This document shows, one piece after another, positions 22,233 to 64,000 of a stretch of 64,000 nt of DNA. Below the pieces are notes generated by a model. That model searched no databases and was not told the origin of the DNA. It saw nothing but the letters and a program-made list of their open reading frames with translations. The stretch lies in the NCBI RefSeq assembly GCF_013122565.1, contig NZ_CP053258.1; one strand, 5' to 3'. Numbering within the stretch: position 1 is the first letter of the stretch; the number at the start of each line of letters is the position of its first letter. Source of the stretch: Escherichia coli (lineage in GTDB: Bacteria > Pseudomonadota > Gammaproteobacteria > Enterobacterales > Enterobacteriaceae). The position numbers were made by a program, and so were the translations under genes.

Positions 22233-22312
22233 TTTTCTATATATCCCTATGGCAAATATTGCTAAACAATGCCTGGGGATTAATTTTTATTACTCACGGA
22301 AAGATTTAAATA

Positions 22313-25119: not shown

Positions 25120-25137
25120 CAATTAAGGCTGCAATCA

Positions 25138-27824: not shown

Positions 27825-27827
27825 CAA

Positions 27828-29198: not shown

Positions 29199-29512
29199 AA
29201 CAGTCAATTGTCTCACTGGCGCAAGTCATTCGTTCGAAAAATGCCGGTCCTTACGAACTGGTTTTAGATATTTTATTTAAAACGAAAGAAAACTATGAGC
29301 GAGTTAAATCATCAGGGCAATTAACCCCAGAACTGATTGCGCGCTTATATCATGTTGAACCTGACTTTATTCATCGTATTGTCTGGTTTGATCCTTCTAA
29401 CGCAGTAAAAATCGTCATGCCACGAGATATTATCTCCGGGAATGTAGGTGACAATGATGTCTATGGTGCACAGCAACATGCACCTTTATTAAATATGAGT
29501 TTCGATTTGTAA
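29195..29512 (+). CDS. uncharacterised small protein, 105 aa, translationally coupled to the preceding ORF
   Basis: ATG at 29195 overlaps the upstream stop (ATGA); no recognisable motif. Confidence 0.55.
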   Translation: MKQSIVSLAQVIRSKNAGPYELVLDILFKTKENYERVKSSGQLTPELIARLYHVEPDFIHRIVWFDPSNAVKIVMPRDIISGNVGDNDVYGAQQHAPLLNMSFDL

Positions 29513-29672
29513 AAATCCGAACACTTTTAGCCAACTGACATCCCATCACTTATTGCAGTTCAACACTTCAGCTATTTGTAAGGTTGTAATAGCAGGTAGA
29601 TGCCTGAGTCTCTATTCAGGCATCTACTTCTCCTGATTCTGATTTATCGCCGTGCACCTGATGGAGGAAAAA

Positions 29673-30953
29673 ATGAAGAAAATAAGTTTAACCACGATGA
29701 TTCTTTTGGCGCTGGTACTTGGAATGATTATCGGCGTAGTGCTCAATAACACTGCTTCACCGGAAACCGCAAAACTCTATGCGCAAGAAATATCGATATT
29801 CACGACGATTTTCTTACGACTGATAAAAATGATTATCGCTCCGTTAGTGGTCTCTACCCTGGTGGTAGGTATAGCTAAAATGGGCGATGCCAAAGCCCTT
29901 GGTCGTATTTTTTCTAAAACACTTTTTTTATTTATTTGCGCCTCATTGCTGTCAATTGCCTTAGGCTTGATAACAGTAAATTTCTTCATGCCAGGCACAG
30001 GAATTAATTTTGTTGCACACGGAGCCGAAACCACCGGAGTGGTCGCGTCAGAACCCTTTACGCTAAAAGTATTTATTTCGCATGCTTTCCCCACCAGCAT
30101 TGTCGATGCCATGGCGCACAATGAAATTTTGCAAATCGTGGTGTTCTCAATTTTCCTCGGCTGTAGCCTGACGGCGATTGGCGAGAAAGGCAGCGCCATC
30201 GTTCACGCCTTAGATTCGCTGGCACATGCCATGTTAAAGCTCACTGGCTACGTCATGCTCTTCGCTCCCCTGACCGTATTCGCCGCTATTTCAGCATTGA
30301 TTGCTGAACGAGGACTGGCAGTTATGGTGAGCGCCGGGATCTTTATGGGTGAATTTTATTTCACCATGTTGTTACTTTGGGTACTGCTTATCGGTCTGGC
30401 CATCGTTTATGTCGGCCCCTGCATCAGACGCCTGACCCGCGCCCTTTCGGAACCCGCCCTGCTGGCATTTACCACATCCAGTTCTGAAGCGGCTTTTCCG
30501 GGAACGCTTGAAAAACTGGAGCAATTTGGCGTTTCCCCCAAAATTGCCAGCTTTGTCTTACCCATTGGCTACTCATTTAATCTCGTTGGATCAATGGCCT
30601 ACTGCTCCTTCGCCACAGTTTTCATCGCCCAGGCCTGCAATATCCATTTATCCATCGGTGAGCAAATCACCATGCTGTTGATCCTGATGTTGACCTCGAA
30701 AGGAATGGCTGGCGTACCACGCGCCTCAATGGTGGTTATCGCCGCCACGCTCAACCAGTTCAATATTCCGGAAGCAGGGCTGATCTTGCTGATGGGCGTT
30801 GATCCGTTCCTTGATATGGGGCGTTCCGCGACAAACGTCATGAGCAACGCAATGGGCGCTGCGATGGTGAGTCGGTGGGAAGGCGAACATTTCGGCGAGG
30901 GCTGTCGGGGTAAAGCATTAAAACCCAATGAATCGAACGTTGCTCTGCCCTGA
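29673..30953 (+). CDS. dicarboxylate/amino acid:cation symporter (GltP/DctA family), candidate glutamate or C5-dicarboxylate transporter
   Basis: ORF 29652..30953 trimmed to the ATG at 29673 after GGAGGA; polytopic, with the family serine-rich motif (TTSSSEAAFPGTLEKLE) as in GltP. Confidence 0.8.
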   Translation: MKKISLTTMILLALVLGMIIGVVLNNTASPETAKLYAQEISIFTTIFLRLIKMIIAPLVVSTLVVGIAKMGDAKALGRIFSKTLFLFICASLLSIALGLITVNFFMPGTGINFVAHGAETTGVVASEPFTLKVFISHAFPTSIVDAMAHNEILQIVVFSIFLGCSLTAIGEKGSAIVHALDSLAHAMLKLTGYVMLFAPLTVFAAISALIAERGLAVMVSAGIFMGEFYFTMLLLWVLLIGLAIVYVGPCIRRLTRALSEPALLAFTTSSSEAAFPGTLEKLEQFGVSPKIASFVLPIGYSFNLVGSMAYCSFATVFIAQACNIHLSIGEQITMLLILMLTSKGMAGVPRASMVVIAATLNQFNIPEAGLILLMGVDPFLDMGRSATNVMSNAMGAAMVSRWEGEHFGEGCRGKALKPNESNVALP

Positions 30954-31060
30954 GGGGGATCTTAAGCAATCAGAAGCCAATGACTACGCATTTTTATAAG
31001 CCGGATCATGAAGTTAGACGGCAATTAAGTAACACTAACGTTTAAGGTGAAAAGTGAAAT

Positions 31061-32713
31061 ATGTCCAAACCATTTATCTGGCAAGAACCGTTTCTACAAA
31101 ATAAAGACGGTACAGAATATACATTAATTAGCGATCAACATATTACAGTAACGGAATTAGACGGCGAAGAAGTGATAAAAATCGCTCCTGAAGCATTAAC
31201 GCTGCTTGCCCGGCAGGCATTTTATGAAGCCTCTTTTTTCTTACGTTCCGCTCATTTGCAACAGGTCGCCAGCATTCTTAACGATCCGCAGGCCAGTAGT
31301 AATGATAAATACGTTGCGTTGCAGTTATTACGTAATGCTGAAGTCTCAGCAAAAGGGGTATTACCCAACTGTCAGGATACCGGCACCGCAACTATTGTTG
31401 CCAGGAAAGGGCAACAGATATGGACCGGAGGTAACGACGCTGAAGCCTTAAGCAAAGGCATTTACACCACTTTCCAGGAAAATAATCTGCGCTTTTCACA
31501 AAATGCGCCGCTGGATATGTATACCGAAGTCAATACGCAAACCAATCTCCCGGCGCAGATTGATATCAGCGCCGTCGCTGGTGATGAGTACCATTTTCTC
31601 TGTGTTAATAAAGGGGGCGGCTCCGCCAATAAAGCCACGCTTTATCAGGAAACCAAATCCTTATTGCAACCAGAAAAACTGACCGCATTTTTAATCGAAA
31701 AAATGAAATCGCTGGGCACCGCTGCCTGCCCGCCTTACCACATCGCCTTTGTCGTCGGAGGGCTTTCAGCCGATCAAACCTTAAAAGTTGCCAAGCTGGC
31801 TTCTACGAAATATTACGACAATTTGCCCACCAGCGGAAACGAGCAGGGACAAGCATTCCGTGATATTGAGCTGGAAAAAGTGATGCTCGAGGCCAGTCAG
31901 CAATTTGGTATTGGTGCGCAATTTGGGGGTAAATATTTCGCTCATGATATTCGCGTCATTCGTCTGCCGCGTCACGGTGGCTCCTGCCCGATAGCTATGG
32001 CGCTCTCCTGTTCAGCCGATCGCAATATCAAAGCAAAAATTAACAAGCACGGTATCTGGCTGGAAAAACTCGAACACAATCCGGGGCAATATATTCCAGC
32101 CTCACTATGGGAAGAAAATCACGCGCAACATGTACAACTGGATCTAAACCGTCCGTTGCGTGACGTGATGCAGGATCTCGCCAGATTACCGGTAGGTACC
32201 CGCGTGTCGTTAAGTGGTCCCATCGTAGTGGCGCGCGATATCGCCCACGCCAAAATAAAAGCGCGGCTGGATAGCGGCGAATCGATGCCGGAGTACCTGA
32301 AGCATCATATTGTCTATTACGCTGGCCCGGCGAAAACACCGGAGAACATGGCCTGCGGTTCACTAGGTCCAACCACGGGCGGTCGAATGGACGGTTATGT
32401 CGATACCTTCCAGGCTGCTGGCGGCAGTCTGGTGATGTTATCGAAAGGTAACCGCAGCCAGCAGGTCACCGATGCCTGTCACAAACATGGTGGCTTCAAT
32501 CTGGGAAGTATTGGCGGTGCAGCTGCGTTACTGGCGCAAGAATATGTCAAAAGTCTGCGTTGCCTGGAATACCCGGAGCTGGGTATGGAAGCGGTGTGGA
32601 TGATGGAAGTGGAAAATCTGCCCGCATTCATCCTGGTAGATGATAAAGGCAATAATTTCTTTAGTCAGTTTGAGCAGCAACACCGCTGCGCCAGTTGCCC
32701 TGCGGGACATTAA
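31061..32713 (+). CDS. class I (Fe-S) fumarate hydratase family protein, FumA/FumB paralogue; candidate mesaconase
   Basis: 550 aa, full-length similarity to FumA as remembered (blocks [55 protein letters not shown]); context suggests mesaconate hydration. Confidence 0.85.
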
Positions 32714-32722
32714 GGAAAATGA

Positions 32723-33325
32723 ATGGAAGCGCGAATTTCAACTGAACGGCATGTGCAGCGCCAGCAGAAATTGAAGGAACAGGTCGATACGCGCGTCGCG
32801 GCGGCGATAGAGAAAAAAGGGATCTTGATTGTTTTCACCGGCAATGGCAAAGGGAAATCCACTGCCGCGTTTGGTACGGTGACGCGCGCGGTGGGTCATG
32901 GCAAAACGGTGGGGGTTGCGCAGTACATCAAGGGGCAATGGGACAACGGCGAATACAACCTTCTCCAGCCGCTCGGGGTTGAGTTTCATATTATGGGAAC
33001 CGGTTTTACCTGGGAGACACAGAACCGGCAAGCGGATATCGACGCGGCGAAAGAGGTCTGGTCGGAAAGCAAACGGATGCTGGCTGACAAGCGTTACGAC
33101 TTAGTGGTGCTTGATGAGCTGACCTATATGCTGGCTTACCATTATCTGGATACCGAAGAAGTGATCGCTTCTCTGCAAAACCGCCCGGCACAACAAAGTG
33201 TCATTGTCACCGGACGCGGTTGCCACAGTCAGATATTAAAAATGGCGGATACGGTCAGCGAAATCCGCCCCGTCAAACATGCTTTTGATAACGGCATTCA
33301 GGCCCAGCCGGGTATCGACTGGTAA
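32723..33325 (+). CDS. cob(I)alamin adenosyltransferase, BtuR/CobA-family paralogue
   Basis: 200 aa with P-loop GNGKGKSTAAFG and full-length similarity to BtuR as remembered; AAGGA RBS; last gene of the operon. Confidence 0.85.
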   Translation: MEARISTERHVQRQQKLKEQVDTRVAAAIEKKGILIVFTGNGKGKSTAAFGTVTRAVGHGKTVGVAQYIKGQWDNGEYNLLQPLGVEFHIMGTGFTWETQNRQADIDAAKEVWSESKRMLADKRYDLVVLDELTYMLAYHYLDTEEVIASLQNRPAQQSVIVTGRGCHSQILKMADTVSEIRPVKHAFDNGIQAQPGIDW

Positions 33326-33328
33326 TAA

Positions 33329-33356
33329 CTGCGCCTGGCATCCCGCCAGGCGCAGG
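33329..33356. terminator. bidirectional terminator between the B12-operon end and the convergent LysR gene
   Basis: Perfect 11-bp inverted repeat ctgcgcctggc / gccaggcgcag around a 5-nt loop, followed by gtttt. Confidence 0.7.
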
Positions 33357-33358
33357 TT

Positions 33359-34264
33359 TTACATCTCCTGCGGTACGACCGATTTCGCCAGCAACCATTC
33401 ACGAAATTGCTGCAAGTGCGGCGAGTCAGACTTCTCTTCCTGCCACGTCATAATAAAACGATTACCGGTACGAATAGGCACATCACAGGGAATCACCATA
33501 TCGCCACTATCCAAATCATGTTGAATAGCGAACCGTGGTAACAGCGCCACGCCGAGATTAGAGCGCACGGCGGCAATCAACATTGAAAGCAAATCGAAAC
33601 GTGGCCCGTTGTTGACCAGCGGACTGCTAACGCCAGATAAAGCAAACCACTCTTCCCAGCCAGTAATACGGGTGCTTTGATGCAGAAGTGGTAACTCAGT
33701 AAGCAGTTCTGCCACTGACAGTTTTTGATCGGACATTGCAAGCAAACTGCCGCTGCATACCGGCAAAATCTCCTCTTCAAAGAGATATTCTACTTCCGCC
33801 CAGGGCGCGCAAAAATTTTCGCGCATAATGACAGCATCGTACTCCCGATTAAGAAAATCGCCGTTATTAGCTAAAGAATGAATATTAACAATAATATCGG
33901 GATGTAACTTTGTGAATTCATGTAAATTTGGGATTAACCAGTGGGTACTAAAAGTAGGATTAACGGCAAGTTCAATAACCTGAACCGTAGGCTGCCAGGT
34001 CATAATGGTATTGGTATCGCGTTCCAGCTTATTTAATGTTTCTTTTACTATCCCCAGGTAATACTTCCCTGCATCATTAAGAAAAATACGTTTTTTAGAG
34101 TGTGAAAATAACGGAGTACGTAAAAATTCCTCCAGCGCACTTACTTGTCTGAATACTGCACTTTGGGTTAACGCTAACTCCTCTGCCGCTCTGGTATAAC
34201 TTTCATGACGTGCGACGACCTCAAAAGTCACCAGCAGTTCCGTTTTAGGTATTTTTCCTCGCAT
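33359..34264 (-). CDS. LysR-family transcriptional regulator
   Basis: ORF 33359..34294 trimmed to the Met after a ggaagg RBS (MRGKIPKTELLVTFEVVARHESYTRAAEELALTQSAVFRQVSALEE is a typical LysR HTH); about 301 aa. Confidence 0.85.
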   Translation of the reverse strand: MRGKIPKTELLVTFEVVARHESYTRAAEELALTQSAVFRQVSALEEFLRTPLFSHSKKRIFLNDAGKYYLGIVKETLNKLERDTNTIMTWQPTVQVIELAVNPTFSTHWLIPNLHEFTKLHPDIIVNIHSLANNGDFLNREYDAVIMRENFCAPWAEVEYLFEEEILPVCSGSLLAMSDQKLSVAELLTELPLLHQSTRITGWEEWFALSGVSSPLVNNGPRFDLLSMLIAAVRSNLGVALLPRFAIQHDLDSGDMVIPCDVPIRTGNRFIMTWQEEKSDSPHLQQFREWLLAKSVVPQEM

Positions 34265-34854
34265 AATGCCTTCCGTGAAAAAATAACAATTCAAAAAATT
34301 ATTTTATAAAAAACAGTAGCGCTAATGAATATCATAATTCAAATAAACAAACCAGTCAGCTATATGTCTAACCAGGAAAATAAAGTGACAATAATCCTAA
34401 AACAGGAATTTCACCTCAGTTATCCGCATGCAATGCTTTAAAGCCATTATTGCAAGAATATTATTCATATACATGAATATACTCTAAATAAGTCGAGTTG
34501 GAGGAAGGGAACAAATAATGAATTTCCAGAAGCTTACATAAGTAAGTGACCTGGGTGAGCGAACATCGATGCAGCACATGCAACTTGAATTATGACAAGT
34601 ATACAATGATAAATTTAGATACCCTATGTTATATATTATCTATGTCCGGTTAAATTGAATGAGTCATGGCCTTCAAAGACATCGCAAAAGATAATTTCTC
34701 TTTAACAATAAGCCAGATTTACCACTTGTAAAAATTGCTATCGCCACATACACTACGCGCGTTTTCTTTCCCTTTTGCTGGCTGCTGACCGGAAAGACAA
34801 AATTACCCTCGCAATACAGGGGGTTGTTTAACGTCTATATTTCAGGACAGCGTT

Positions 34855-36252
34855 ATGCATCATCTTTCAAGGCTTGATAAAGCCTTTCTGCGCAAAGGGA
34901 TCCAACTTTCCCGCGCCAACAATATTGTTTCATTATCTCGTCCATCAGGTGTCAGTGCCCGCGTACTGCTGCCAGACGAACTGCCGCTGGAAGAAAAAGC
35001 AGTAACACAACTGCTTGATTTTGCAGAAGTGAAGCTACCAGACCACCCAGGTTATGTACGCCAGACGTGTGCGACGCCAGATTTTCATCCCGGCAATGGC
35101 GTCCCCGTTGGCGCGGTGGTAGCCTCAACGCCGGATTTAGTCATTCCCGCCGCCATCGGCACCGATATTTCTTGTGGCATGCGGCTGCTGACGACCGGAA
35201 TAACACTTGAGCAAGCCGAAGCGCATAAAGACGTCATCACTCAGCGGTTAACGCAAGTGTTACTGCAAAATGAGCGCGATGTTCCGTTATCTGCACGAGC
35301 GTTCACCGCGCTTTTTGATGGCGGGCCGGCAGATTGCATGTCGGCCTTGCCATCAGCAGGTCTCTGGACACGCACGAATATCCCCCGAATGGTACAAGAG
35401 ATTGACCGCTGCATTGGGCTGAACGAGCATAAAAGTCATTCGCGTTATGCCCCACCCGCCCTGCTGGCAACGGACCGCGCATTACTCCGCGACCCTTGTC
35501 TGGGTACGCCGGGTTCAGGTAATCATTTTATTGAACTTCAGGTAGTTGATAGCGTGATCGATCGCCATGTAGCCTGGCAACAAGGGCTGAAAACAGGCGA
35601 TATCGTGGTGATGATCCATAGTGGATCGCGAGATGTCGGCTTTTACGTCGGACGACGCTGGACGGACCGTGCCCGCGCAGACTGGCCCGCTGGGCATAAA
35701 CATCCACAAAGCGGGTTATATGGTCTGGCTGGTGGACTGGCGGAGGAATATCTACAAGCGATGGGAATGGCGGCGCGTTACGCATGGTTAAATCGCGTGA
35801 CCATTACGGAAATGGTGCGCGTATGTTTTGCCGATTTATTCCATCAGGATGAATCACATCTGGTGGTGGATGTGCCGCATAACATCATCCTTCGCGAGCA
35901 TGAGATGAATATTCATCGCAAAGGCGCAACACCGGCACGTGCGGGCGATCTGGCGTTAATCCCCGGTTCAATGGGCGATTATTCGTGGCTTGCGGTAGGT
36001 TGCGGCAACCCGGAGTGGTTGTGGTCATGCAGTCACGGAGCAGGACGCAGCCAGCGTCGGCAGGCCATGCGCGCACACGCGACTGAAGAGTCAACGCTGC
36101 CGTGGCAATGCGTAACACTGCGTGAAGAACGGCGTATTGAGGAAGCGCCAGCTGCTTATAAAGATATTGGTCCGGTTATCGAAGCCCAACAAGAAGCTGG
36201 ATTAATTCAGCCAGCGGTCAGATTTCGACCGTGGTTAACGTTTAAGGCATAA
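34855..36252 (+). CDS. RtcB-family RNA ligase paralogue (465 aa, N-terminally extended)
   Basis: Motifs typical of RtcB: PDFHPGNG, GTDISCGM (cf. GVDIGCGM), and HGAGR near the C-terminus; divergent from the LysR gene across 590 bp. Confidence 0.75.
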   Translation: MHHLSRLDKAFLRKGIQLSRANNIVSLSRPSGVSARVLLPDELPLEEKAVTQLLDFAEVKLPDHPGYVRQTCATPDFHPGNGVPVGAVVASTPDLVIPAAIGTDISCGMRLLTTGITLEQAEAHKDVITQRLTQVLLQNERDVPLSARAFTALFDGGPADCMSALPSAGLWTRTNIPRMVQEIDRCIGLNEHKSHSRYAPPALLATDRALLRDPCLGTPGSGNHFIELQVVDSVIDRHVAWQQGLKTGDIVVMIHSGSRDVGFYVGRRWTDRARADWPAGHKHPQSGLYGLAGGLAEEYLQAMGMAARYAWLNRVTITEMVRVCFADLFHQDESHLVVDVPHNIILREHEMNIHRKGATPARAGDLALIPGSMGDYSWLAVGCGNPEWLWSCSHGAGRSQRRQAMRAHATEESTLPWQCVTLREERRIEEAPAAYKDIGPVIEAQQEAGLIQPAVRFRPWLTFKA

Positions 36253-46931: not shown

Positions 46932-48215
46932 ATGGCTGATACAAAAGCAAAACTCACCCTCAACGGGGACACAGCTGTTGAACTGGATGTGCTGAAAGGC
47001 ACGCTGGGTCAAGATGTTATTGATATCCGTACTCTCGGTTCAAAAGGTGTGTTCACCTTTGACCCAGGCTTCACTTCAACCGCATCCTGCGAATCTAAAA
47101 TTACTTTTATTGATGGTGATGAAGGTATTTTGCTGCACCGCGGTTTCCCGATCGATCAGCTGGCGACCGATTCTAACTACCTGGAAGTTTGTTACATCCT
47201 GCTGAATGGTGAAAAACCGACTCAGGAACAGTATGACGAATTTAAAACTACGGTGACCCGTCATACCATGATCCACGAGCAGATTACCCGTCTGTTCCAC
47301 GCTTTCCGTCGCGACTCACATCCAATGGCAGTCATGTGTGGTATTACCGGCGCGCTGGCGGCGTTCTATCACGACTCGCTGGATGTTAACAATCCTCGTC
47401 ATCGTGAAATTGCCGCGTTCCGCCTGCTGTCGAAAATGCCGACCATGGCAGCGATGTGTTACAAGTATTCCATTGGTCAGCCATTTGTTTATCCGCGCAA
47501 CGATCTCTCCTACGCCGGTAACTTCCTGAATATGATGTTCTCCACGCCGTGCGAACCGTATGAAGTTAATCCGATTCTGGAACGTGCTATGGACCGTATT
47601 CTGATCCTGCACGCTGACCATGAACAGAACGCCTCTACCTCCACCGTGCGTACTGCTGGCTCTTCGGGTGCGAACCCGTTTGCCTGTATCGCAGCAGGTA
47701 TTGCTTCACTGTGGGGACCTGCGCACGGTGGTGCTAACGAAGCGGCGCTGAAAATGCTGGAAGAAATCAGCTCCGTTAAACACATTCCGGAATTTGTTCG
47801 TCGTGCGAAAGACAAAAATGATTCTTTCCGCCTGATGGGCTTCGGTCACCGCGTGTACAAAAATTACGACCCGCGCGCCACCGTAATGCGTGAAACCTGC
47901 CATGAAGTGCTGAAAGAGCTGGGCACCAAAGATGACCTGCTGGAAGTGGCTATGGAGCTGGAAAACATCGCGCTGAACGACCCGTACTTTATCGAGAAGA
48001 AACTGTACCCGAACGTCGATTTCTACTCTGGTATCATCCTGAAAGCGATGGGTATTCCTTCTTCCATGTTCACCGTCATCTTCGCCATGGCCCGTACCGT
48101 TGGCTGGATCGCTCACTGGAGCGAAATGCACAGTGACGGCATGAAGATCGCCCGTCCGCGCCAGTTGTATACAGGATATGAAAAACGCGACTTTAAAAGC
48201 GATATCAAGCGTTAA
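46932..48215 (+). CDS. gltA: citrate synthase
   Basis: 427 aa, [36 protein letters not shown]; GGAGA RBS. Confidence 0.95.
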
Positions 48216-48243
48216 TGGTTGATTGCTAAGTTGTAAATATTTT

Positions 48244-48275
48244 AACCCGCTGTTCATATGGCGGGTTAATTTTTA
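48244..48275 (+). terminator. rho-independent terminator after gltA
   Basis: aacccgc-tgttcatatg-gcgggtt stem-loop followed by aatttttat. Confidence 0.7.
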
Positions 48276-48606
48276 TATGCCTAAATACAAATATTTGTAA
48301 AAATAAAATCCACTATCGGATATCCATATATTTTTAATAAAAATATATCGGTATGAATTATAAACAGTTCAGTGAACTTTAATCACCTATATTCCTGTCA
48401 GTCACATGAATAAATCACCAAACATAGCGCACCCCTATAATTTCCAATGGTTTATTCATTAAACAATTAATTCACGACATCAATTAATTACTTTTACATT
48501 TAATAAAATTAATAATATTTTTAAGAAAAACTAAAAACATTCGACAATCAAATAAGATATTCTTGCACCGATATACCTTTTTTCTTTTCTGTTAAAGGAC
48601 TCTGTT

Positions 48607-49173
48607 ATGTTTAAAGGACAAAAAACATTGGCCGCACTGGCCGTATCTCTGCTGTTCACTGCACCTGTTTATGCAGCTGATGAAGGATCCGGTGAAATTC
48701 ACTTTAAAGGTGAGGTTATTGAAGCGCCTTGTGAAATACATCAGGATGATATTGATAAAGAAGTTGAACTCGGTCAGGTGACCACCAGCCACATTAATCA
48801 AACTCATCACAGCGATGCCGTTGCTGTCGACCTGCGCTTGGTGAATTGCGATTTGGAAAACTCCAACAACGGTTCCGGTGACAAGATTTCTAAAGTTGCA
48901 GTCACCTTTGATAGCTCAGCGAAAACCACCGGCGCAGATCCGATTCTCAACAACACCAGCACGGGTGAAGCCACCGGCGTCGGCGTGCGTTTATTGAATA
49001 AAAATCAAACCAATATCGTTTTAGGCACCGCTGCTCCAGACATCGACCTGGCTCCGACCTCCAGCGAGCAAACGCTGAATTTCTTTGCCTGGATGGAACA
49101 AATTGATCAGGCAACACCAGTAACGCCAGGTGCAGTTACGGCGAATGCAACCTACGTGCTGGATTATAAATAA
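48607..49173 (+). CDS. ybgD: fimbrial major subunit-like protein
   Basis: 188 aa with signal peptide and paired Cys typical of chaperone-usher pilins; first gene of a four-gene fimbrial operon after an AT-rich leader. Confidence 0.85.
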   Translation: MFKGQKTLAALAVSLLFTAPVYAADEGSGEIHFKGEVIEAPCEIHQDDIDKEVELGQVTTSHINQTHHSDAVAVDLRLVNCDLENSNNGSGDKISKVAVTFDSSAKTTGADPILNNTSTGEATGVGVRLLNKNQTNIVLGTAAPDIDLAPTSSEQTLNFFAWMEQIDQATPVTPGAVTANATYVLDYK

Positions 49174-49223
49174 GTATTACTTTGGCGGCGCTATCGCCGC
49201 CTTTCTTCAAATATTTATCAGGT

Positions 49224-51683
49224 ATGGACACCGTGAATATTTATCGACTCTCTTTTGTATCCTGCCTGGTCATGGCGATGCCTTCCGCATTAGCGGTCGA
49301 ATTCAACCTGAATGTCCTCGATAAATCGATGCGCGATCGTATTGATATATCATTATTAAAGGAAAAAGGTGTCATTGCTCCAGGCGAATATTTTGTTAGC
49401 GTTGCGGTAAATAATAACCAAATCAGTAACGGGCAAAAGATTAACTGGCAAAAAAATGACGATAAAACCATTCCGTGCATCAATGATTTACTGGTCGATA
49501 AATTTGGCTTAAAACCTGAAGTCCGTCAGTCGTTACCATTGATAAATCAGTGCATCGATTTTAGCTCCCGACCTGAAATGCTCTTCAATTTTGATCAGGC
49601 CAGTCAGCAACTGAATATCACCATTCCGCAGGCCTGGCTGGCGTGGCACTCAGATAACTGGACCCCACCCTCCACATGGAAAGAAGGTGTCGCCGGTGTC
49701 CTGATGGATTACAACTTGTTTGCTAGCAGCTACCGCCCACAGAATGGCAGCAGCAGCACTAATCTTAACGCCTACGGAACAGCAGGAATCAACACGGGGG
49801 CATGGCGCTTACGCAGTGATTACCAGTTGAATCAGACGGATAGCGATGATGACCATGAACAGTCAGGCGAAATATCACGTACCTATCTTTTTCGCCCGTT
49901 ACCGCAATTAGGTTCAAAATTAACCCTCGGCGAAACGGATTTTAGTTCCAATATTTTCGACGGTTTTTCTTATACCGGTGCGGCACTGGCGAGTGACGAT
50001 CGAATGTTGCCATGGGAACTACGCGGCTACGCTCCACAAATTAGCGGTATTGCACAGACCAATGCCACGGTGACGATCAGTCAATCAGGCCGCGTCATTT
50101 ACCAGAAAAAAGTCACACCAGGTCCGTTTATCATTGATGACCTTAATCAGTCCGTCCAGGGAACGCTGGATGTCAAAGTAACGGAAGAAGATGGTCGGGT
50201 GAACAATTTCCAGGTTTCGGCAGCATCGACGCCCTTCCTGACTCGCCAGGGACAGGTTCGCTATAAACTGGCCGCGGGTCAGCCACGGCCTTCCATGTCA
50301 CATCAAACTGAAAATGAAACCTTTTTTAGCAATGAAGTTTCCTGGGGGATGCTCTCCAACACCTCGCTGTACGGCGGCCTGCTGATTTCGGGTGATGACT
50401 ACCATTCTGCCGCAATGGGTATCGGGCAAAATATGCTGTGGCTTGGCGCGCTGTCGTTTGATGTCACCTGGGCCAGTAGCCATTTTGATACTCAGCAGGA
50501 CGAGCGGGGCTTAAGCTACCGATTTAACTACAGCAAACAAGTGGATACCACCAACAGCACGATTTCACTTGCCGCTTATCGTTTCTCCGATCGTCATTTT
50601 CACAGCTACGCCAACTATCTGGATCACAAATACAACGACAGCGATGCGCAGGACGAAAAACAGACAATCAGCTTATCCGTAGGCCAACCGATTACCCCAC
50701 TAAACCTCAATCTTTACGCCAACCTGTTGCATCAAACCTGGTGGAATGCAGACGCCTCCACGACCGCCAACATCACGGCAGGTTTTAATGTTGATATTGG
50801 TGACTGGAGAGATATCTCGATTTCGACGTCATTCAATACAACCCATTACGAAGATAAAGATCGCGATAACCAGATTTACCTGTCGATTTCGCTCCCCTTC
50901 GGTAACGGTGGCCGGGTTGGCTATGACATGCAAAACAGTAGCCACAGCACCACACACCGCATGTCGTGGAACGATACGCTGGATGAACGTAATAGCTGGG
51001 GCATGTCTGCCGGACTGCAATCCGACCGTCCGGACAGTGGAGCCCAGGTGAGCGGTAACTATCAGCACCTGAGTTCAGCGGGTGAGTGGGATATTTCTGG
51101 TACCTATGCCGCCAATGATTACAGTTCTGTAAGCAGCAGCTGGAGCGGTTCTTTCACCGCAACCCAATATGGTGCAGCGTTTCATCGCCGCAGCTCCACC
51201 AATGAACCACGCCTGATGGTCAGCACCGATGGCGTGGCAGATATTCCGGTTCAGGGCAATCTCGACTACACCAACCATTTTGGCATTGCGGTGGTGCCGT
51301 TGATTTCCAGTTACCAGCCTTCCACCGTGGCGGTGAACATGAATGACTTACCCGACGGCGTAACAGTTGCAGAAAACGTTATCAAAGAAACGTGGATTGA
51401 AGGCGCAATAGGTTACAAATCACTGGCTTCCCGTTCCGGTAAAGACGTTAACGTCATCATTCGCAACGCCAGCGGTCAGTTCCCTCCCCTCGGTGCGGAT
51501 ATCCGCCAGGATGACAGCGGCATTAGCGTGGGGATGGTTGGCGAGGAAGGACACGCCTGGTTAAGCGGAGTCGCTGAAAATCAAAAGTTTACCGTGGTCT
51601 GGGGTGATAGTCAGCGTTGCTCGATCCATCTTCCTGAACATATGGAAGACACCGCAAATCGCCTGATTTTACCTTGTCATTAA
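49224..51683 (+). CDS. ybgQ: fimbrial outer-membrane usher
   Basis: ORF 49182..51683; start placed at the ATG at 49224 giving a signal peptide (MDTVNIYRLSFVSCLVMAMPSALA); about 819 aa. Start is uncertain. Confidence 0.85.
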   Translation: MDTVNIYRLSFVSCLVMAMPSALAVEFNLNVLDKSMRDRIDISLLKEKGVIAPGEYFVSVAVNNNQISNGQKINWQKNDDKTIPCINDLLVDKFGLKPEVRQSLPLINQCIDFSSRPEMLFNFDQASQQLNITIPQAWLAWHSDNWTPPSTWKEGVAGVLMDYNLFASSYRPQNGSSSTNLNAYGTAGINTGAWRLRSDYQLNQTDSDDDHEQSGEISRTYLFRPLPQLGSKLTLGETDFSSNIFDGFSYTGAALASDDRMLPWELRGYAPQISGIAQTNATVTISQSGRVIYQKKVTPGPFIIDDLNQSVQGTLDVKVTEEDGRVNNFQVSAASTPFLTRQGQVRYKLAAGQPRPSMSHQTENETFFSNEVSWGMLSNTSLYGGLLISGDDYHSAAMGIGQNMLWLGALSFDVTWASSHFDTQQDERGLSYRFNYSKQVDTTNSTISLAAYRFSDRHFHSYANYLDHKYNDSDAQDEKQTISLSVGQPITPLNLNLYANLLHQTWWNADASTTANITAGFNVDIGDWRDISISTSFNTTHYEDKDRDNQIYLSISLPFGNGGRVGYDMQNSSHSTTHRMSWNDTLDERNSWGMSAGLQSDRPDSGAQVSGNYQHLSSAGEWDISGTYAANDYSSVSSSWSGSFTATQYGAAFHRRSSTNEPRLMVSTDGVADIPVQGNLDYTNHFGIAVVPLISSYQPSTVAVNMNDLPDGVTVAENVIKETWIEGAIGYKSLASRSGKDVNVIIRNASGQFPPLGADIRQDDSGISVGMVGEEGHAWLSGVAENQKFTVVWGDSQRCSIHLPEHMEDTANRLILPCH

Positions 51684-51697
51684 TTAAGGAAATGAAA

Positions 51698-52429
51698 ATG
51701 ACATTTATGAAAGGACTTCCCCTTTTGTTGTTGGTAGCCAGTCTGTGCAGCCACGCAGCACTACAACCCGATCGTACTCGTATTGTGTTTAACGCTAATG
51801 ATAAAGCTACCAGTCTGCGAGTAGATAATCGTAGCGATAAACTCCCCTACCTCGCTTATTCCTGGCTCGAAAATGAAAAAGGGGAGAAAAGCGACGATCT
51901 TCTGGTCGCCCTGCCACCGATACAACGTCTGGAACCGAAAGCAACAACGCAGGTGCGGATAGTCAAGCAAGCCTCGACCGCGAAATTACCGGGCGATCGC
52001 GAAACGCTATTTTTCTACAATATACGTGAAATTCCTCCCGCCCCGGAAAAAAACAGCGACCATGCCGTTCTGCAGGTCGCCATCCAGAGCCGTATCAAGG
52101 TGTTCTGGCGACCGTCTGCGTTACGCAAGAAAGCAGGGGAAAAGGTCGAACTGCAGTTACAGGTCAGCCAGAATGGCAACCAACTTAGCTTAAAAAACCC
52201 GACCGGCTATTATCTGACAATCGCCTACCTGGGACGAAATGAGCAAGGCGTTCTCCCCGGCTTCAAAACCGTGATAGTTGCACCTTTTAGTACGGTCAGC
52301 ACTAATACCGGAAGCTATAGCGGCAGCCAGTTTTATCTCGGTTATATGGATGATTACGGCGCGTTACGCATGACGACGCTCAATTGTAGCGGACAATGCC
52401 GTTTACAAGCCGTGGAGGCGAAGAAATGA
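51698..52429 (+). CDS. ybgP: fimbrial periplasmic chaperone
   Basis: ORF 51674..52429 (TTG) trimmed to [20 protein letters not shown]; PapD-like chaperone of 243 aa. Confidence 0.85.
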
Positions 52430-53487
52430 GTGCTGGTAAGGGATTATTGCTCATCTTTTTTCTTCTTTTTCTACCCTTGAAGTCTGCGCTGGCGCTGAAC
52501 TGCTATTTTGGTACTTCCGGCGGGGCGGTAGAAAAATCGGAAGCTATTCAACCATTTGCTGTACCAGGCAATGCCAAACCAGGCGATAAAATCTGGGAGT
52601 CTGACGATATTAAAATTCCCGTTTATTGTGACAACAATACCAACGGCAACTTTGAAAGCGAGCATGTCTACGCCTGGGTAAACCCGTATCCGGGGGTGCA
52701 GGATCCTTATTATCAACTCGGCGTGACATACAATGGTGTCGATTACGATGCCAGCCTGGGGAAAAGCCGTATCGACACTAACCAGTGTATCGACAGTAAA
52801 AACATTGATATTTATACCCCTGAGCAGATCATCGCGATGGGATGGCAGAACAAAATTTGCTCGGGCGATCCCGCTAATATTCATATGTCGCGTACCTTTC
52901 TCGCTCGCATGCGGTTATACGTCAAAATTCGCGAAATGCCACCGCATGATTATCAAAGCACGCTTAGCGATTACATCGTGGTGCAATTTGATGGCGAAGG
53001 CAGTGTTAATGAGGACCCTACCGCTCAAAACCTGAAATATCATATTACCGGTCTGGAAAACATTCGCGTGCTGGACTGCAGCGTCAATTTTGCCATTACG
53101 CCTGCCAACCAGGTGATTGATTTTGGTAAATTTAACTTGCTGGATATTCGGCGACATAACATGACTAAAACGTTCAGTATTAAAACGACCAAGAGCCAAA
53201 ACGATCAATGTACCGACGGATTTAAAGTCAGTTCCTCCTTTTATACCGAAGAAACATTGATTGAAGAAGATAAAGCATTGTTGATTGGTAATGGTCTGAA
53301 GCTACGTTTACTGGATGAAAACGCCTCGCCTTATACATTCAATAAATATGCTGAATACGCCGATTTCACCAGTGACATGTTGATCTACGAAAAAACCTAT
53401 ACAGCTGAACTTTCGTCCATTCCAGGCACCCCCATCGAGGCTGGGCCCTTCGATACAGTGGTGCTTTTTAAGATTAACTATAACTGA
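52426..53487 (+). CDS. ybgO: fimbrial adhesin-like protein
   Basis: ORF 52396..53487 trimmed to [23 protein letters not shown]; start overlaps the ybgP stop (ATGA). Confidence 0.8.
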
Positions 53488-53638
53488 TTTACCATCATGC
53501 CCTTTGCAGCCGAAAAGGGCATCTCATTCAGAAAATTGCTGATTTTCCCCTTTTCCTTGATTGCTGTTATTTTTTCCTGGCCCGGCTTTCTTTATGCTGT
53601 ATCGATACACCAAAGAGAAAATAATGAGGGAGCAAAGG

Positions 53639-54685
53639 ATGCCAGTTTTGCAGTGGGGAATGTTATGTGTGTTATCACTTCTCCTTTCTATTGGTTTCCT
53701 CGCGGTACATCTCCCGGCGGCGCTATTACTTGGGCCGATGATCGCCGGGATCATCTTTAGTATGCGCGGAATTACTCTGCAACTTCCCCGCTCCGCTTTT
53801 CTCGCCGCCCAGGCCATTCTTGGCTGCATGATTGCGCAAAACCTCACTGGTTCGATCCTGACCACGCTGGCGGTGAACTGGCCGATTGTGTTAGCTATTT
53901 TACTGGTGACGCTGCTTTCCAGCGCCATTGTTGGGTGGCTACTGGTGCGCTATAGCTCATTACCTGGAAATACCGGTGCCTGGGGTTCTTCTCCTGGCGG
54001 CGCGGCGGCAATGGTCGCTATGGCGCAAGATTACGGCGCAGATATTCGCCTGGTGGCGTTTATGCAATATCTGCGAGTGCTGTTCGTCGCAGGGGCCGCT
54101 GTTCTGGTCACACGCATGATGCTGGGCGATAACGCTGAAGCGGTTAACCAGCAGATCGTCTGGTTTCCGCCAGTGAGCATTAATCTCCTGCTTACGATTT
54201 TGCTCGCGGTCGTTGCCGGTACAGTGGGATGCCTGCTGCGTCTTCCTTCCGGCACGATGCTCATCCCGATGCTGGCGGGCGCAGTGCTCCAGTCTGGTCA
54301 GCTCATCACCATCGAACTACCGGAATGGCTGCTGGCGATGGCGTATATGGCAATTGGCTGGCGAATTGGTCTGGGCTTCGATAAACAAATCTTATTGCGG
54401 GCATTGCGACCGCTGCCGCAAATCTTGATGTCGATTTTTGCTCTGCTGGCTATTTGTGCGGGTATGGCGTGGGGGCTGACCCGGTTTATGCACATTGATT
54501 TTATGACTGCCTACCTCGCCACCAGCCCCGGCGGGCTTGATACCGTGGCGGTCATCGCCGCAGGGAGCAATGCCGATATGGCGCTCATTATGGCGATGCA
54601 AACCCTGCGCCTGTTCAGTATTTTGCTGACAGGGCCTGCCATTGCGCGGTTTATTTCAACCTATGCGCCGAAACGTACGGCTTAG
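53639..54685 (+). CDS. abrB: AbrB-family membrane protein (putative transporter/regulator)
   Basis: ORF 53561..54685 trimmed to [23 protein letters not shown] after a GGGAG RBS; 348 aa polytopic protein. Confidence 0.85.
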
Positions 54686-55473
54686 TGCTGGCAGCCAGGA
54701 CACCAGTAAAACGGGCGCGATGACAACGTGGTTTTCTCAATGATGTCGCCACAGCGTTCGCACGGTTCGCCATCACGATGAAAAACCTTAAAGCGAAACA
54801 GCGCCCCATGATGCTTATTCTCATCCACCTGCCCCCGCGTAGCGTAAGAAAGTCGAGGAATATCCAGTAACGCGTGTGCGAGTGCATCCAGTTGCGCCGC
54901 CTTGAGATCTTTCGCTTTATGATTCCCAGTCAACCCAACCTGCCAGAGGATCTCCACCCGCAGATAATTGCCAAGCCCAGCGAGAAACGCCTGATCGAGC
55001 AGTAATCCAGCAAACTGACGGTTACGAAAGCGCGGCGACAATAACCGTTCTTTCACCACCTCCGGCGTCAGATTCGGATCCAGCACATCGGGACCAACGC
55101 GTTGTAAAAACGGATGCGTGGTCAGTTGTTCCGGGGTCAACATCTCAATATCCGAGGCGCTATAAAGCAGAATGGTTTTGTCGGCAGTTTGCAGCTTCAC
55201 CCGCAGCACGCGCGTGGTTTGCGGCTCTTCACCGGTATCAACCACCCGCCACACGCCGTACAGCTGGTTATGGCTGTAGAGCGTTAAGCCATCGGAAAAA
55301 TGGGTCAGCAACGCTTTTCCGCGTGTTTCCATATGAGTGACGTGTTGACCGATAAGTTGTGACTGATACGGTTGTAACTGCGGGAAGGCAAACCAGACAT
55401 CAGTTAGTGGTTTGCCTTTAATCGCCACCTCCAGGTTATCCGCTGCGCGGCGGATCTCCGGACCTTCAGGCAT
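54682..55473 (-). CDS. nei: endonuclease VIII (DNA glycosylase/AP lyase)
   Basis: 263 aa, [18 protein letters not shown] (Fpg/Nei N-terminal PEGPE) with a C-terminal zinc finger (CERCG...CPGCQ). Confidence 0.93.
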
Positions 55474-55507
55474 GGTGATATCCTTTTTTCGTTTTTATTC
55501 AGCGGGA

Positions 55508-56242
55508 TTATGCTGAGACAACAATCCCCTTTTTGGCAAATGCAGAGCGTAATCGGTGGGCAAACGCCAGCGCGTGCTCGCCGTCACCATGCAGGCAGAC
55601 CGTTTGTGCCGTTACTTTCGCCCATTCGCCAGTGATGCTTTTAACTCTGCCGTTTTGCACCATCTCCAGCGTCTGTGCAAGCGCCTGTTCTTCGTCTTCA
55701 ATCAGCGCGCCTGGCTGGCTTCGCGGCACCAGCGAGCCGTCAGCCTTGTAACCGCGATCGGCAAACACTTCCTCGCGCGTTGTCAGGCCATATTGCTTGC
55801 CTGCACGAATCAGCTCGCTTCCCGCCAGCCCGACGAGAATCAATGCCGGATCGCAAGCGTATACCGCTCTGGCGATGGCGTCTGCCAGTTGTGCCTCTTT
55901 CGCCGCCTGGTTGTATAACATGCCGTGCGGTTTAACATGGCGCATAACACCGCCTTGCGCACGGGCAATCGTTGCCAGCGCGCCAATTTGATACAGCGTC
56001 TGGGCGTAAACGGTTTCTGGCGGCAGCTGCATGACGCTGCGCCCAAAATTTTCCCTGTCGGGAAAACTCGGGTGAGCGCCAATCGCAACACCATTTTTTA
56101 TTGCTTCACGCACGCAAGCCTGCATGGTTTGCGCATCGCCTGCATGAAATCCACAGGCAATATTGGCAGAGGAAACCAGCGTTAATAGCTCTGCGTCGCT
56201 GGCATAGCCTTCGCCCAGATCGGCGTTCAGGTCAATTTTCAT
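55508..56242 (-). CDS. pxpA: 5-oxoprolinase subunit A (LamB/YcsF family)
   Basis: 244 aa, [36 protein letters not shown]. Confidence 0.9.
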
Positions 56243-60347: not shown

Positions 60348-60380
60348 GCCTGATAAGACGCTCGCTGCGTTTTATCAGGC
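60348..60380. repeat. REP-like palindrome between convergent dtpD and phr
   Basis: gcctgataagacgctcgctgcgttttatcaggc; its right arm overlaps the phr stop codon. Confidence 0.5.
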
Positions 60381-61793
60381 TCCTTTCCTCGCTTCTTCAT
60401 ACGCTGCCAGCGTTCGCAGCCTTGCCTCTTTGTGATCAACTATCGGTTGCGGATAATCCAGCATCACACCTGCTTTCTGCGCCCACTTCCACGGCTCATG
60501 CACCGCTTTCCCTGGTACATCGCGCAGCTCCGGTAACCATCGGCGGATAAACTCACCTTCGCGATCAAATTTCTCGCCCTGGGTTGTCGGGTTAAAAATA
60601 CGAAAATACGGCGCAGCATCGGTTCCGGTGGAGGCCGCCCATTGCCAGCCACCGTTATTGGCTGCCAAATCACCATCAATCAGCTGCGACATGAAATATC
60701 GCTCGCCTTCGCGCCAGTCGATCAATAAATCTTTCACCAGAAAACTGGCTGTAATCATCCGTAGCCGGTTATGCATCCAGCCAGTGTTGTTAAGCTGACG
60801 CATGGCGGCATCGACAATCGGGTATCCGGTTTTACCTTCCTGCCAGGCCTGTAAATGGGCGGGATTGCTTTGCCATTGCACGCGGTCGGTCCAGGCAATA
60901 AACGGTCGATGTTTACACAACGAGGGGTAATACGTCATTAGATGACGGTAGAACTCGCGCCAGATCAGCTCATTAAGCCAGACACTACCGGCCCCACCGT
61001 CCAGCGCCTGAGGCTGTTCCGCCAACAGGCGATGCAAACACTGGCGAGGCGATAACCCGCCCGTTGCCAGACTGGCGGACAAACGACTGGTGCCTTCCAC
61101 TGCCGGAAAATCTCGTTGTTGCTCATACTCTCCGGCACCGTTCTGGCAAAACTGGCGTAATTGCGCAATCACCGCTTTTTCTTCCACCGGGAAATGCGCA
61201 GTATCGAAAGACTGACGAGGATAATTCAGCGTAATGGATGGCGCGGGCTCTATCGATCCGCTACTACGAACTTTTGGTGCAGTGACGCACTCCGGCATCC
61301 CTTCCCGCAGCCGTTTCAGCCAGGCATTCTTAAAAGGCGTAAAGACTTTGTACATCTCGTGATTGCCGGTCATCACCGCCCCCGGCGGCAGGATCACGCT
61401 GTCATCAAATCCTTCACACACCACGTTACGCAGCGCCCTCTCAGCCTGCACATCCCGCGCCCGCTCATTCACCTCATACTGATAGTTATAAAACAGATGG
61501 GTAATGCGATTTTCCACGCACACCTGTTTAACTGTTTCGACACTGGCAGCAAAGTCATCCACTTCACGGAACAATAAAGGAATGCCTTTTTCCGCCAGCG
61601 CTATTCGTAGCCCATTCAGTTGCGCATTGATAAATTCAGCCTGACGCGGCGACATATTATGCACTGCCCACTGGCGCGGTGTAGCGATATACAACGCCAG
61701 CACGCGTGCAGACGAATTGCGGCAGGCGGCAGCCAGCGCGAGATTATCATGCAGACGTAAATCCTGGCGAAACCAGACCAGATGGGTAGTCAT
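60375..61793 (-). CDS. phr: deoxyribodipyrimidine photolyase
   Basis: 472 aa, MTTHLVWFRQDLRLHDNLAL (photolyase N-terminus) with a C-terminal FAD-binding domain. Confidence 0.93.
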   Translation of the reverse strand: MTTHLVWFRQDLRLHDNLALAAACRNSSARVLALYIATPRQWAVHNMSPRQAEFINAQLNGLRIALAEKGIPLLFREVDDFAASVETVKQVCVENRITHLFYNYQYEVNERARDVQAERALRNVVCEGFDDSVILPPGAVMTGNHEMYKVFTPFKNAWLKRLREGMPECVTAPKVRSSGSIEPAPSITLNYPRQSFDTAHFPVEEKAVIAQLRQFCQNGAGEYEQQRDFPAVEGTSRLSASLATGGLSPRQCLHRLLAEQPQALDGGAGSVWLNELIWREFYRHLMTYYPSLCKHRPFIAWTDRVQWQSNPAHLQAWQEGKTGYPIVDAAMRQLNNTGWMHNRLRMITASFLVKDLLIDWREGERYFMSQLIDGDLAANNGGWQWAASTGTDAAPYFRIFNPTTQGEKFDREGEFIRRWLPELRDVPGKAVHEPWKWAQKAGVMLDYPQPIVDHKEARLRTLAAYEEARKGA

Positions 61794-62299
61794 AAAGCTC
61801 CTGCATGGCGCAAGTTAATCACACGCGGCCAAAGTTCGAAATAACGCTGCCCTGAAAGCCAGGCGTCAGGATAAAGCGCCATATAGTGTTTGATACGCAT
61901 CAGCGGCGCAAGAAGCGGTTGCTCGCCACGGCGATAACTGTCGATAAGCGCAGCCAGCTGCTGGCGTTCTGTGGAATCAATATGTGGGCGAAAATAACCC
62001 TGAACGTGCATCAAAACGTTGGTGTGATCGCGCGTGTTGGCGGGGTGAGAAAGTAAAACGATTACACGTTGGCGGTACTGGTTGTAATAGTCATCCAGAT
62101 TTTGCCACCGATGAATATCAGCCACAAACGGGCCAAGTTTGCGGTATTCCGGCTGGTAATGCGCCAGAAAGACGAGTTTATAGCGGCTGTGATAATCGTT
62201 GAACGCCCCACGCGTTAGCCCATGTTCTTTCAGTCGATGTAACTCATGAAGGGCGAAGATACGGATTAGGGTGCTTTCATCAAATCGTTGCTGATTCAT
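61790..62299 (-). CDS. ybgA: DUF1722-family protein YbgA (co-transcribed with phr)
   Basis: ORF 61790..62368 trimmed to MNQQRFDESTLIRIFALHELHRLKEHGL after an aggag RBS; 169 aa; stop overlaps the phr start. Confidence 0.85.
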   Translation of the reverse strand: MNQQRFDESTLIRIFALHELHRLKEHGLTRGAFNDYHSRYKLVFLAHYQPEYRKLGPFVADIHRWQNLDDYYNQYRQRVIVLLSHPANTRDHTNVLMHVQGYFRPHIDSTERQQLAALIDSYRRGEQPLLAPLMRIKHYMALYPDAWLSGQRYFELWPRVINLRHAGAL

Positions 62300-62343
62300 T
62301 ACTGCTCCTGAACGGTTTACAGGAGTAAGTGTAGACGGCGAAA

Positions 62344-62372
62344 AGAAAAAAACCGCCAGCGTTTCCACTAGC
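62344..62372 (-). terminator. putative rho-independent terminator after ybfA
   Basis: Minus-strand aaaccgc-(loop)-gcggttt followed by uuuuuuucuuu; the loop is long, so confidence is moderate. Confidence 0.45.
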
Positions 62373-62400
62373 GGTTTTCAATGTATTCAAAACTCAGCAA

Positions 62401-62607
62401 TCAGTAAAAATCACCGGTTGCCTTTTCGGCCTGATCCATCCAAACCGGTTTATCGCTGGTTTTCGACCAGACGCGATGCAGGTAGCTGTAAAAGCGGGCG
62501 CGGTCTTTCCAGAAAAGCATGAAAGGCAGCGCCAGAACGCCCGCTGCAACCGCATAAGTACGGCGTAAAAAGATAAGCCATGCAGGATATTCTCTGTAGA
62601 GTTCCAT
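62401..62607 (-). CDS. ybfA: small membrane protein YbfA (DUF2517)
   Basis: 68 aa, [49 protein letters not shown]; divergent from kdpF. Confidence 0.8.
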
Positions 62608-62919
62608 ACTTTTCTCCCCCTTTTGTATCTACCCGGTGAATAGCACCGGAAAAATGAATTTGTTTATCTGATGAAAATAGTACCGCCTTTTGTGTAATTT
62701 TACTACTCATCCGACCACTTATTTTTGCTTATTGATGGTTTATTTACATTCATCCTGTAATTAAGTTACACAAAAGTTAAATTAATACTAAACGTTAGTT
62801 AAATCATGGCTTTTGCCATTTTTATACTTTTTTTACACCCCGTCCGCAGATTTTTGCGAAATCTTTGCAGCCAGAATTCTACCCTTCCGGTATCACTTTT
62901 AGGCCACTGGAGGTGCACT

Positions 62920-63009
62920 GTGAGTGCAGGCGTGATAACCGGCGTATTGCTGGTGTTTTTATTACTGGGTTATCTGGTTTATGCCCTGATCAATGCGGAG
63001 GCGTTCTGA
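62920..63009 (+). CDS. kdpF: K+-transporting ATPase small subunit KdpF (29 aa)
   Basis: GTG at 62920 after a GGAGG RBS; translates to (M)[28 protein letters not shown]; the 67-aa track ORF 62806..63009 is an unsupported extension of this frame. Confidence 0.8.
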
Positions 63010-64000
63010 TGGCTGCGCAAGGGTTCTTACTGATCGCCACGTTTTTACTGGTGTTAATGGTGCTGGCGCGCCCTTTAGGCAGCGGGCTGGCGCGGCTGAT
63101 TAATGACATACCTCTTCCCGGTACAGCGGGCGTTGAACGTATACTCTTTCGTTTACCTGGCGTCTCTGACAGTGAGATGAACTGGAAGCAGTATCTCTGT
63201 GCCATTCTCGGCCTGAACATGCTGGGGCTGGCGGTGCTGTTTTTCATGCTGCTCGGTCAGCACTATCTACCGCTTAATCCACAGCAGTTGCTGGGGCTGT
63301 CGTGGGATCTGGCGCTGAATACCGCCGTCAGCTTTGTCACGAATACCAACTGGCAATCTTATAGCGGTGAAACCACGTTGAGCTATTTCAGCCAGATGGC
63401 GGGCTTAACGGTGCAAAACTTTCTTTCTGCCGCCAGCGGGATTGCGGTGATTTTTGCCTTCATCCGTGCATTTACCCGCCAGAGCATGAGCACACTCGGG
63501 AATGCCTGGGTCGATCTGCTACGCATCACGTTATGGGTGCTAGTCCCTGTGGCGTTGTTGATCGCACTGTTTTTTATTCAACAAGGTGCACTGCAAAACT
63601 TTCAGCCTTATCAGGCGGTGAATACCGTTGAAGGAGCGCAACAGCTGTTACCAATGGGTCCGGTGGCTTCTCAGGAAGCGATCAAGATGCTCGGCACTAA
63701 CGGCGGTGGTTTCTTTAATGCCAACTCGTCGCATCCGTTTGAAAACCCAACCGCACTGACCAACTTCGTGCAGATGCTGGCGATCTTCTTGATCCCAACA
63801 GCGCTGTGCTTTGCCTTTGGTGAAGTGACGGGCGATCGCCGTCAGGGGCGCATGTTGCTGTGGGCGATGTCGGTGATTTTTGTCATCTGCGTAGGCGTGG
63901 TGATGTGGGCAGAAGTTCAGGGTAATCCTCATCTGCTGGCGCTGGGTGCGGACAGCAGCATCAATATGGAAGGTAAAGAGAGCCGTTTCGGCGTGCTGGT
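63009..64000 (+). CDS. kdpA: K+-transporting ATPase subunit A, 5' partial (runs past the window end)
   Basis: ATG at 63009 overlaps the kdpF stop (ATGA); begins [35 protein letters not shown]; open frame to the window edge, so absent from the ORF track. Confidence 0.9.

Follow-up and report, generated by a model that had tools for sequence, protein, structure and literature searches.

An unoccupied Rhs position 5 site between ybfA and ybgA in Escherichia coli

Jackson et al. 2009 (PMC2935791) list the interval kdpA...phr as locus, or position, 5 of the rhs genes, assign it to clade I, and record the presence or absence of rhs at this locus among strains. The same study describes a group of pathogenic strains without the clade I expansion, reports a complete gene at position 5 in E. 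albertii, and infers from E. albertii that ancestral E. coli carried rhs at this position; loss of rhs genes and rhs relics are widespread in its survey. In K-12 MG1655 the locus is occupied, and the annotated order is ybfA - rhsC - ybfB - ybfO (pseudogene) - ybfC - ybfQ - ybfL (pseudogene) - ybfD - ybgA. We take ybfB and ybfC to be immunity genes linked to the Rhs tip; ybfQ, ybfL and ybfD are H-repeat/ISAs1 remnants.

Here we describe the corresponding locus in a 64-kb stretch of an E. coli genome (64,000 nt; hereafter the window), in which ybfA and ybgA are separated by 101 bp (62300-62400; sequence and tblastn with K-12 proteins). The first-pass annotation of this DNA had placed only about 100 bp with a terminator-like hairpin between the two genes, at exactly these positions, and had stated that an RhsC element separates them in K-12. 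That statement was right: by annotation and alignment 9,568 bp intervene in K-12, and the arrangement that the annotation had named as its own counter-case, ybfA immediately beside ybgA in K-12, does not occur there. Based on comparison of the spacer across three genera, we propose, with a probability of about 0.88, that these 101 bp represent the ancestral uninterrupted allele of the position 5 site (kdpA...phr).

Layout of the spacer and comparison with K-12

Most of the window is 98-99.5% identical to K-12, and three regions depart from this. At 20893-36246, where K-12 has mngR-mngA-mngB, there is a 15.35-kb methylaspartate-pathway block without a K-12 counterpart, which is also present in O157:H7 and others. 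It encodes methylaspartate mutase S and E, GlmL, methylaspartate ammonia-lyase, a DctA/GltP-like transporter, a class I fumarase, a LysR regulator and an RtcB-family protein. The region of the ybgD-ybgQ-ybgP-ybgO fimbrial operon (48000-56000) is only 80-94% identical to K-12. The phr-ybgA-kdpA region, which contains the site studied here, is 94-97% identical.

On the minus strand, read from the kdp side to the phr side, the order is ybfA, spacer, ybgA and phr (Table 1), and kdpF-kdpA form the conserved flank on the far side of the ybfA-ybgA locus. YbfA is 100% identical to K-12 YbfA over 68 aa (tblastn), and YbgA is 94.1% identical over residues 1-169 (window 62299..61793; tblastn); Pfam domains PF10725 and PF08349 are on record for the respective orthologues in assembly GCA_019497265.1 (L024). 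The ybgA ATG occupies 62299-62297, and a listed 192-aa ORF from a GTG at 62368 simply prolongs the ybgA frame upstream. The phr gene, the downstream member of the ybgA-phr pair, overlaps the ybgA stop by 4 nt and has 93.4% DNA identity to K-12. The spacer is wholly accounted for by a predicted intrinsic terminator of ybfA, a 9-nt linker and the ybgA leader.

Table 1. Positions of genes and spacer elements at the ybfA-ybgA locus of the window
Feature	Coordinates	Strand	Basis and details
phr, deoxyribodipyrimidine photolyase	60375..61793	-	ORF list; K-12 annotation; window-K-12 alignment
ybgA, stand-alone DUF1722 protein, 169 aa	61790..62299	-	tblastn with K-12 YbgA
ybgA leader	62300..62336	-	block GTCTACACTTA at 62336..62326; SD AGGAG at 62309..62305; small hairpin
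Linker CTTTTCGCC (minus-strand reading), 9 nt	62337..62345	-	K-12 alignment and junction sequences; insertion point of RhsC in K-12
Predicted ybfA intrinsic terminator	62346..62379	-	terminator scan, fold and consensus structure
ybfA, DUF2517 protein, 68 aa	62401..62607	-	tblastn
kdpF	62921..63009	+	sequence; K-12 and A30 annotation; kdpA then from 63010

The terminator scan identified a hairpin at 62379..62348 on the minus strand, with a 14-pair stem and a 4-nt loop, whose 3' arm runs into seven T (62352..62346) and which begins 21 nt past the ybfA stop on the same strand. A G+C-rich stem-loop followed by a U-run, 3' of a gene on its own strand, is the form of an intrinsic terminator, and we predict that the hairpin directly 3' of ybfA is the terminator of this gene. 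Folding 99 nt (62302-62400) gave -32.2 kcal/mol (z = -3.9), and none of 200 shuffled sequences was as stable. A consensus structure built from 11 sequences of three genera retains the stem and contains one compensatory pair (AU in seven sequences, GC in four).

On the ybgA side, the conserved 11-mer GTCTACACTTA sits immediately upstream of a 6-bp hairpin (CUCCUG/CAGGAG; 62325-62320 paired with 62310-62305 in the minimum free energy fold) that includes the ybgA SD. The 11-mer is kept in Citrobacter and in both occupied and empty alleles of Escherichia, and it has one change in Trabulsiella (GTTTACACTTA). A regulatory role for the block and the SD hairpin is putative. An Rfam scan of 61500-63100 (E <= 1) returned a chance miRNA match only, leaving the spacer without a known RNA family, and a promoter scan found no sigma-70 consensus in the spacer. 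TACACT, inside the conserved block, was considered as a -10 element; the empty alleles gave no acceptable -35, and we claim no promoter.

We aligned the window to K-12 725.5-791.9 kb. Window 64000..62347 corresponds to K-12 727741..729394, and window 62337..60397 to K-12 738963..740903; the K-12 segment between these blocks (729395-738962) has no counterpart, and the window has in its place the 9-nt linker, which is unrecognisable in K-12. The window junction reads ...GGCGGTTTTTTT-CTTTTCGCC-GTCTACACTTACTCC..., and the two ends of the K-12 element read ...GGCGGTTTTTTG|TATCAGGAAG... (left) and ...TCATTTCTCAAC|GTCTACACTTACTCC... (right). The K-12 element is bounded on one side by the T-run of the terminator and on the other by the conserved leader block, which lies 36 nt upstream of the ybgA ATG. 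In the window the flanks are contiguous and the breakpoints coincide with the ends of the K-12 element; the spacer contains no element remnant, scar or orphan genes.

Neither K-12 RhsC nor YbfO had a tblastn match (E <= 1e-3) in the whole 64-kb window, YbfB, YbfC, YbfQ, YbfL and YbfD had no tblastn match within it, and the DNA of the 9.57-kb K-12 element had no blastn match to it. The features of an RhsC-type element, namely an rhs core ORF, small ORFs and H-repeat remnants, are missing from the window. The first-pass annotation had proposed looking for Rhs core fragments elsewhere in the genome; the search made here covers these 64 kb, within which none matched.

Among 5,426 complete E. coli genomes, a 1.2-kb junction-spanning query was found in one place in 1,310 and a 121-nt junction query was contiguous in 1,307; the ybfA-ybgA site is unoccupied in about 24% of them. 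Of the roughly 1,307 genomes with an empty site, about 1,170 have the Nissle 1917-type junction. That of the window is the rarer variant, present in about 130-140 complete genomes, and the spacer of GCA_019497265.1 is identical to it. These genomes bear on the possibility that a repeat-rich Rhs element was collapsed or skipped during assembly. Rhs cores are multi-copy, and draft contigs do end just upstream of ybgA, at 124 nt in E. albertii (L006) and at 398 nt in MOD1-EC7003 (L009). A collapse, however, would break the contig and not yield a seamless junction; the 121-nt query has a 100% match in the complete genome of strain 33F4, and the site is contiguous in over 1,300 complete genomes. 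We consider an assembly artefact extremely improbable.

Outgroups and the age of the empty site

One genome per GTDB species was scanned with YbgA peptide patterns that required exact words; 14 loci were returned, Salmonella, E. fergusonii and an E. coli representative not being among them, and the outgroup sample is to that extent incomplete. The genes kdpA-ybfA-ybgA-phr stand in direct succession in six Citrobacter species, in Trabulsiella odontotermitis and in the representatives of two divergent Escherichia species. These two Escherichia records carry an E. coli label yet are 8-9% from E. coli at dtpD. The outgroup spacers are colinear with that of the window, and each runs from the ybfA stop through a hairpin, a T-run, 8-10 nt, the 11-mer (in its altered form in Trabulsiella) and the SD to the ATG. 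The uninterrupted, sequence-colinear arrangement is thus present in these outgroup taxa. The 9-nt linker agrees with the Citrobacter linkers in position, length and CG-rich core alone; its short length and its divergence do not allow strong homology to be claimed.

Because the outgroup spacers are colinear and the terminator stem is kept across three genera, the uninterrupted arrangement predates Escherichia. The same gene order and spacer layout in the outgroups indicate that the empty site is probably ancestral and not a deletion scar. We therefore argue from these alignments that the empty allele is an older state than the Rhs allele, and that it either persisted or was re-acquired. The reading of the first-pass annotation, an unoccupied site, is supported both by the K-12 breakpoints and by the outgroup adjacency with its colinear spacer.

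Against the ancestral reading stands the inference of Jackson et al. 2009 (PMC2935791): if ancestral E. coli already had rhs at position 5, the lineage of the window may have lost the element secondarily or re-acquired the empty site. The present data agree with that study in that the insertion is old and common to several species.

Occupied alleles, flank diversity and the history of the site

Most E. coli, K-12 included, have a clade I Rhs element (RhsC) at position 5. We compared the RhsC-type alleles of K-12, strain 1943, O157:H7, DETEC-S565, Escherichia sp. E1V33, MOD1-EC7003, E. whittamii and the E. albertii type strain. The right junction, ...CACAAAnnTCATTnnCnAnC|GTCTACAC, is common to every RhsC-type occupied allele examined, and the left junction, TTTTTTG|TATCAGGAAG, is common to the four that reach ybfA (K-12, 1943, O157 and DETEC-S565). 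From the shared right junction we infer a single origin of the RhsC insertion, an old event with later diversification inside the element. The occupied allele is internally varied, with a 6.4-kb form in strain 1943, a form with other immunity genes in O157 and a SymE/PAAR-split-Rhs form in L020/L021. Foreign DNA would have entered once, between the terminator T-run and the GTCTACACTTA block, replacing a linker of about 9 nt; since then the occupied allele would have changed internally and passed from one Escherichia lineage to another through homologous recombination in the flanks. A target-site duplication was also considered. TATCA occurs near both ends of the K-12 element, but neither the O157 nor the E. 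albertii junctions conserve it, and the candidate was set aside.

The site has other occupants as well. In two loci (L020 and L021, 11556-17314) the segment adjoining ybgA encodes a SymE-toxin-family protein, a 126-aa ORF and a split Rhs, which consists of a PAAR/DUF6531 N-terminal ORF and an RHS-core ORF. Inserts unrelated to these are present in other strains: LSC52 (L027, 16600-18349) has a 1.75-kb insert with a CDI-immunity gene, two hypothetical ORFs and its own junctions, and has no Rhs core at the ybfA-ybgA site. DETEC-S586 has an IS1 there. Insertion between ybfA and ybgA is recurrent. A decayed element does not leave behind a clean spacer arranged as in the outgroups; LSC52, for comparison, carries 1.75 kb of orphan genes at the site.

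Rhs elements are known substrates of rearrangement. A resident element could accordingly have been removed by illegitimate or short-repeat recombination that restored a clean spacer by chance, and the widespread rhs loss and relics reported by Jackson et al. 2009 (PMC2935791) would fit such an event. We disfavour this explanation and regard it as very unlikely. The spacer is arranged as in Citrobacter and Trabulsiella and is of nearly equal length, and the same junction is present in unrelated genomes. The ends of the K-12 element share no direct repeat beyond the 5-nt TATCA, and LSC52, with the only insert lacking an Rhs core seen at the site, does not have a clean spacer.

Occupancy does not track the flanks. 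A30, which is empty, and O157:H7, which is occupied, differ by only 1.6% at ybgA, 1.5% at phr and 0.7% at dtpD, and whole-allele exchange by homologous recombination is therefore likely. The flanks themselves are unusually diverse: within E. coli, distances reach up to 8.6% at ybgA/phr, compared with 1-4% at dtpD. At dtpD, Escherichia sp. E1V33 lies 9.3% from E. coli, but at ybgA only 2.5-3.7% from the nearest E. coli alleles, a pattern that suggests inter-species exchange of the segment beside the Rhs site. In the window, phr-ybgA (60375-62299) has a best identity of 96.3% to any of the 5,426 complete E. coli genomes, and the larger segment 39001-64000 has a best DNA identity of 97.2% to any complete E. 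coli genome. An index of 153 billion genes contains no exact match to the YbgA or Phr protein, whereas the DtpD protein, encoded next door to phr-ybgA, is a very common allele in it.

It is possible that RhsC was once present in this lineage and that the whole locus was replaced by the empty allele of another strain, through homologous recombination in the flanking kdp/ybfA and ybgA/phr segments. In that case the allele would be ancestral in type, whereas in the history of the lineage the element would have been lost rather than never gained. We consider this less likely than not. The possibility draws on the independence of occupancy from flank relatedness (A30 and O157:H7), on the diversity of the flanks and their exchange across species, and on the rhs gene that Jackson et al. 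2009 (PMC2935791) infer at position 5 of ancestral E. coli. However, mismatch profiles against six loci revealed diffuse divergence of 2-5% with no clear edge, so that no window-specific recombination breakpoint was located around the site, and with one window and no genome phylogeny a secondary loss is inseparable from simple retention. The lineage of the window may have either retained or regained the ancestral allele that we favour.

A further proposal is that the empty and RhsC alleles form an old, Escherichia-wide polymorphism, shuffled by recombination and held by balancing or frequency-dependent selection on toxin and immunity, together with occupancy-dependent expression of the photolyase operon. 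We consider it rather doubtful. If true, it would account for the diversity of ybgA-phr beside the site, which within E. coli is 2-4 times that of dtpD, 2 kb away.

Expression of ybgA-phr, significance and comparison with known alleles

The spacer would end ybfA transcription at the hairpin and T-run, and it supplies the leader and ribosome-binding site of ybgA-phr. The ybgA-phr pair may be expressed from transcripts that read through the ybfA terminator or from a weak promoter that overlaps GTCTACACTTA; a literature search on the ybgA-phr promoter found nothing usable. Insertion of RhsC would sever ybgA-phr from ybfA read-through and replace the upstream promoter context, which in occupied strains is the right end of the Rhs element. 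One may speculate that expression of the photolyase operon differs between occupied and empty strains through the GTCTACACTTA block and the SD hairpin.

The ybgA 5' ends of Citrobacter (about 9930-10000 in L011-L016) encode a start of the form MxKRIPVGIRACL... We take this to resemble the start of a TudS domain. DUF1722 fused to TudS constitutes the tRNA s4U desulfidase RudS, which is often encoded with a photolyase in light-responsive operons (PMC11417400). There are hints here that ybgA, as a stand-alone DUF1722 gene, arose from a RudS-type fusion by internal deletion.

The empty site is an ordinary strain-to-strain presence/absence polymorphism that has been described previously and is already known. 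The strain belongs to the roughly one-quarter of E. coli genomes without RhsC at position 5, and at this locus it has neither the RhsC toxin nor the downstream ORFs of the K-12 element. The absence of the small rhsC-linked ORFs may matter for contact-dependent competition with RhsC-bearing strains. What the outgroup spacers add is modest: they point to the empty allele as ancestral and so qualify the published inference of rhs at position 5 in ancestral E. coli. A further addition is the description of a recurrent insertion point flanked by unusually diverse ybgA-phr alleles that appear to be exchanged between species.

Compared with described alleles, the site in the window is the same to the nucleotide as the insertion site of the K-12 RhsC element at position 5, with the ybfA terminator on one side and GTCTACACTTA with the ybgA leader on the other; the window lacks all 9,568 bp of the element and has the 9-nt linker in their place. 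In Nissle 1917 and HM670 (O2:H1), ybfA and ybgA are likewise adjacent, with the layout of the window and a spacer of almost equal length, but their junction is only 84% identical to the window junction query and differs in its linker, TTTTTTCGGC, and in a segment of the ybfA 3'-UTR. Citrobacter spp. and Trabulsiella odontotermitis share gene order and spacer architecture with the window, whereas their coding flanks have 64-85% DNA identity to it and in Citrobacter the start of the ybgA ORF lies about 25 codons further upstream. LSC52, DETEC-S586 and L020/L021 carry inserts between ybfA and ybgA whose cargo differs each time, those of LSC52 and L020 directly abutting the conserved leader block; the window, by contrast, is without any insert.
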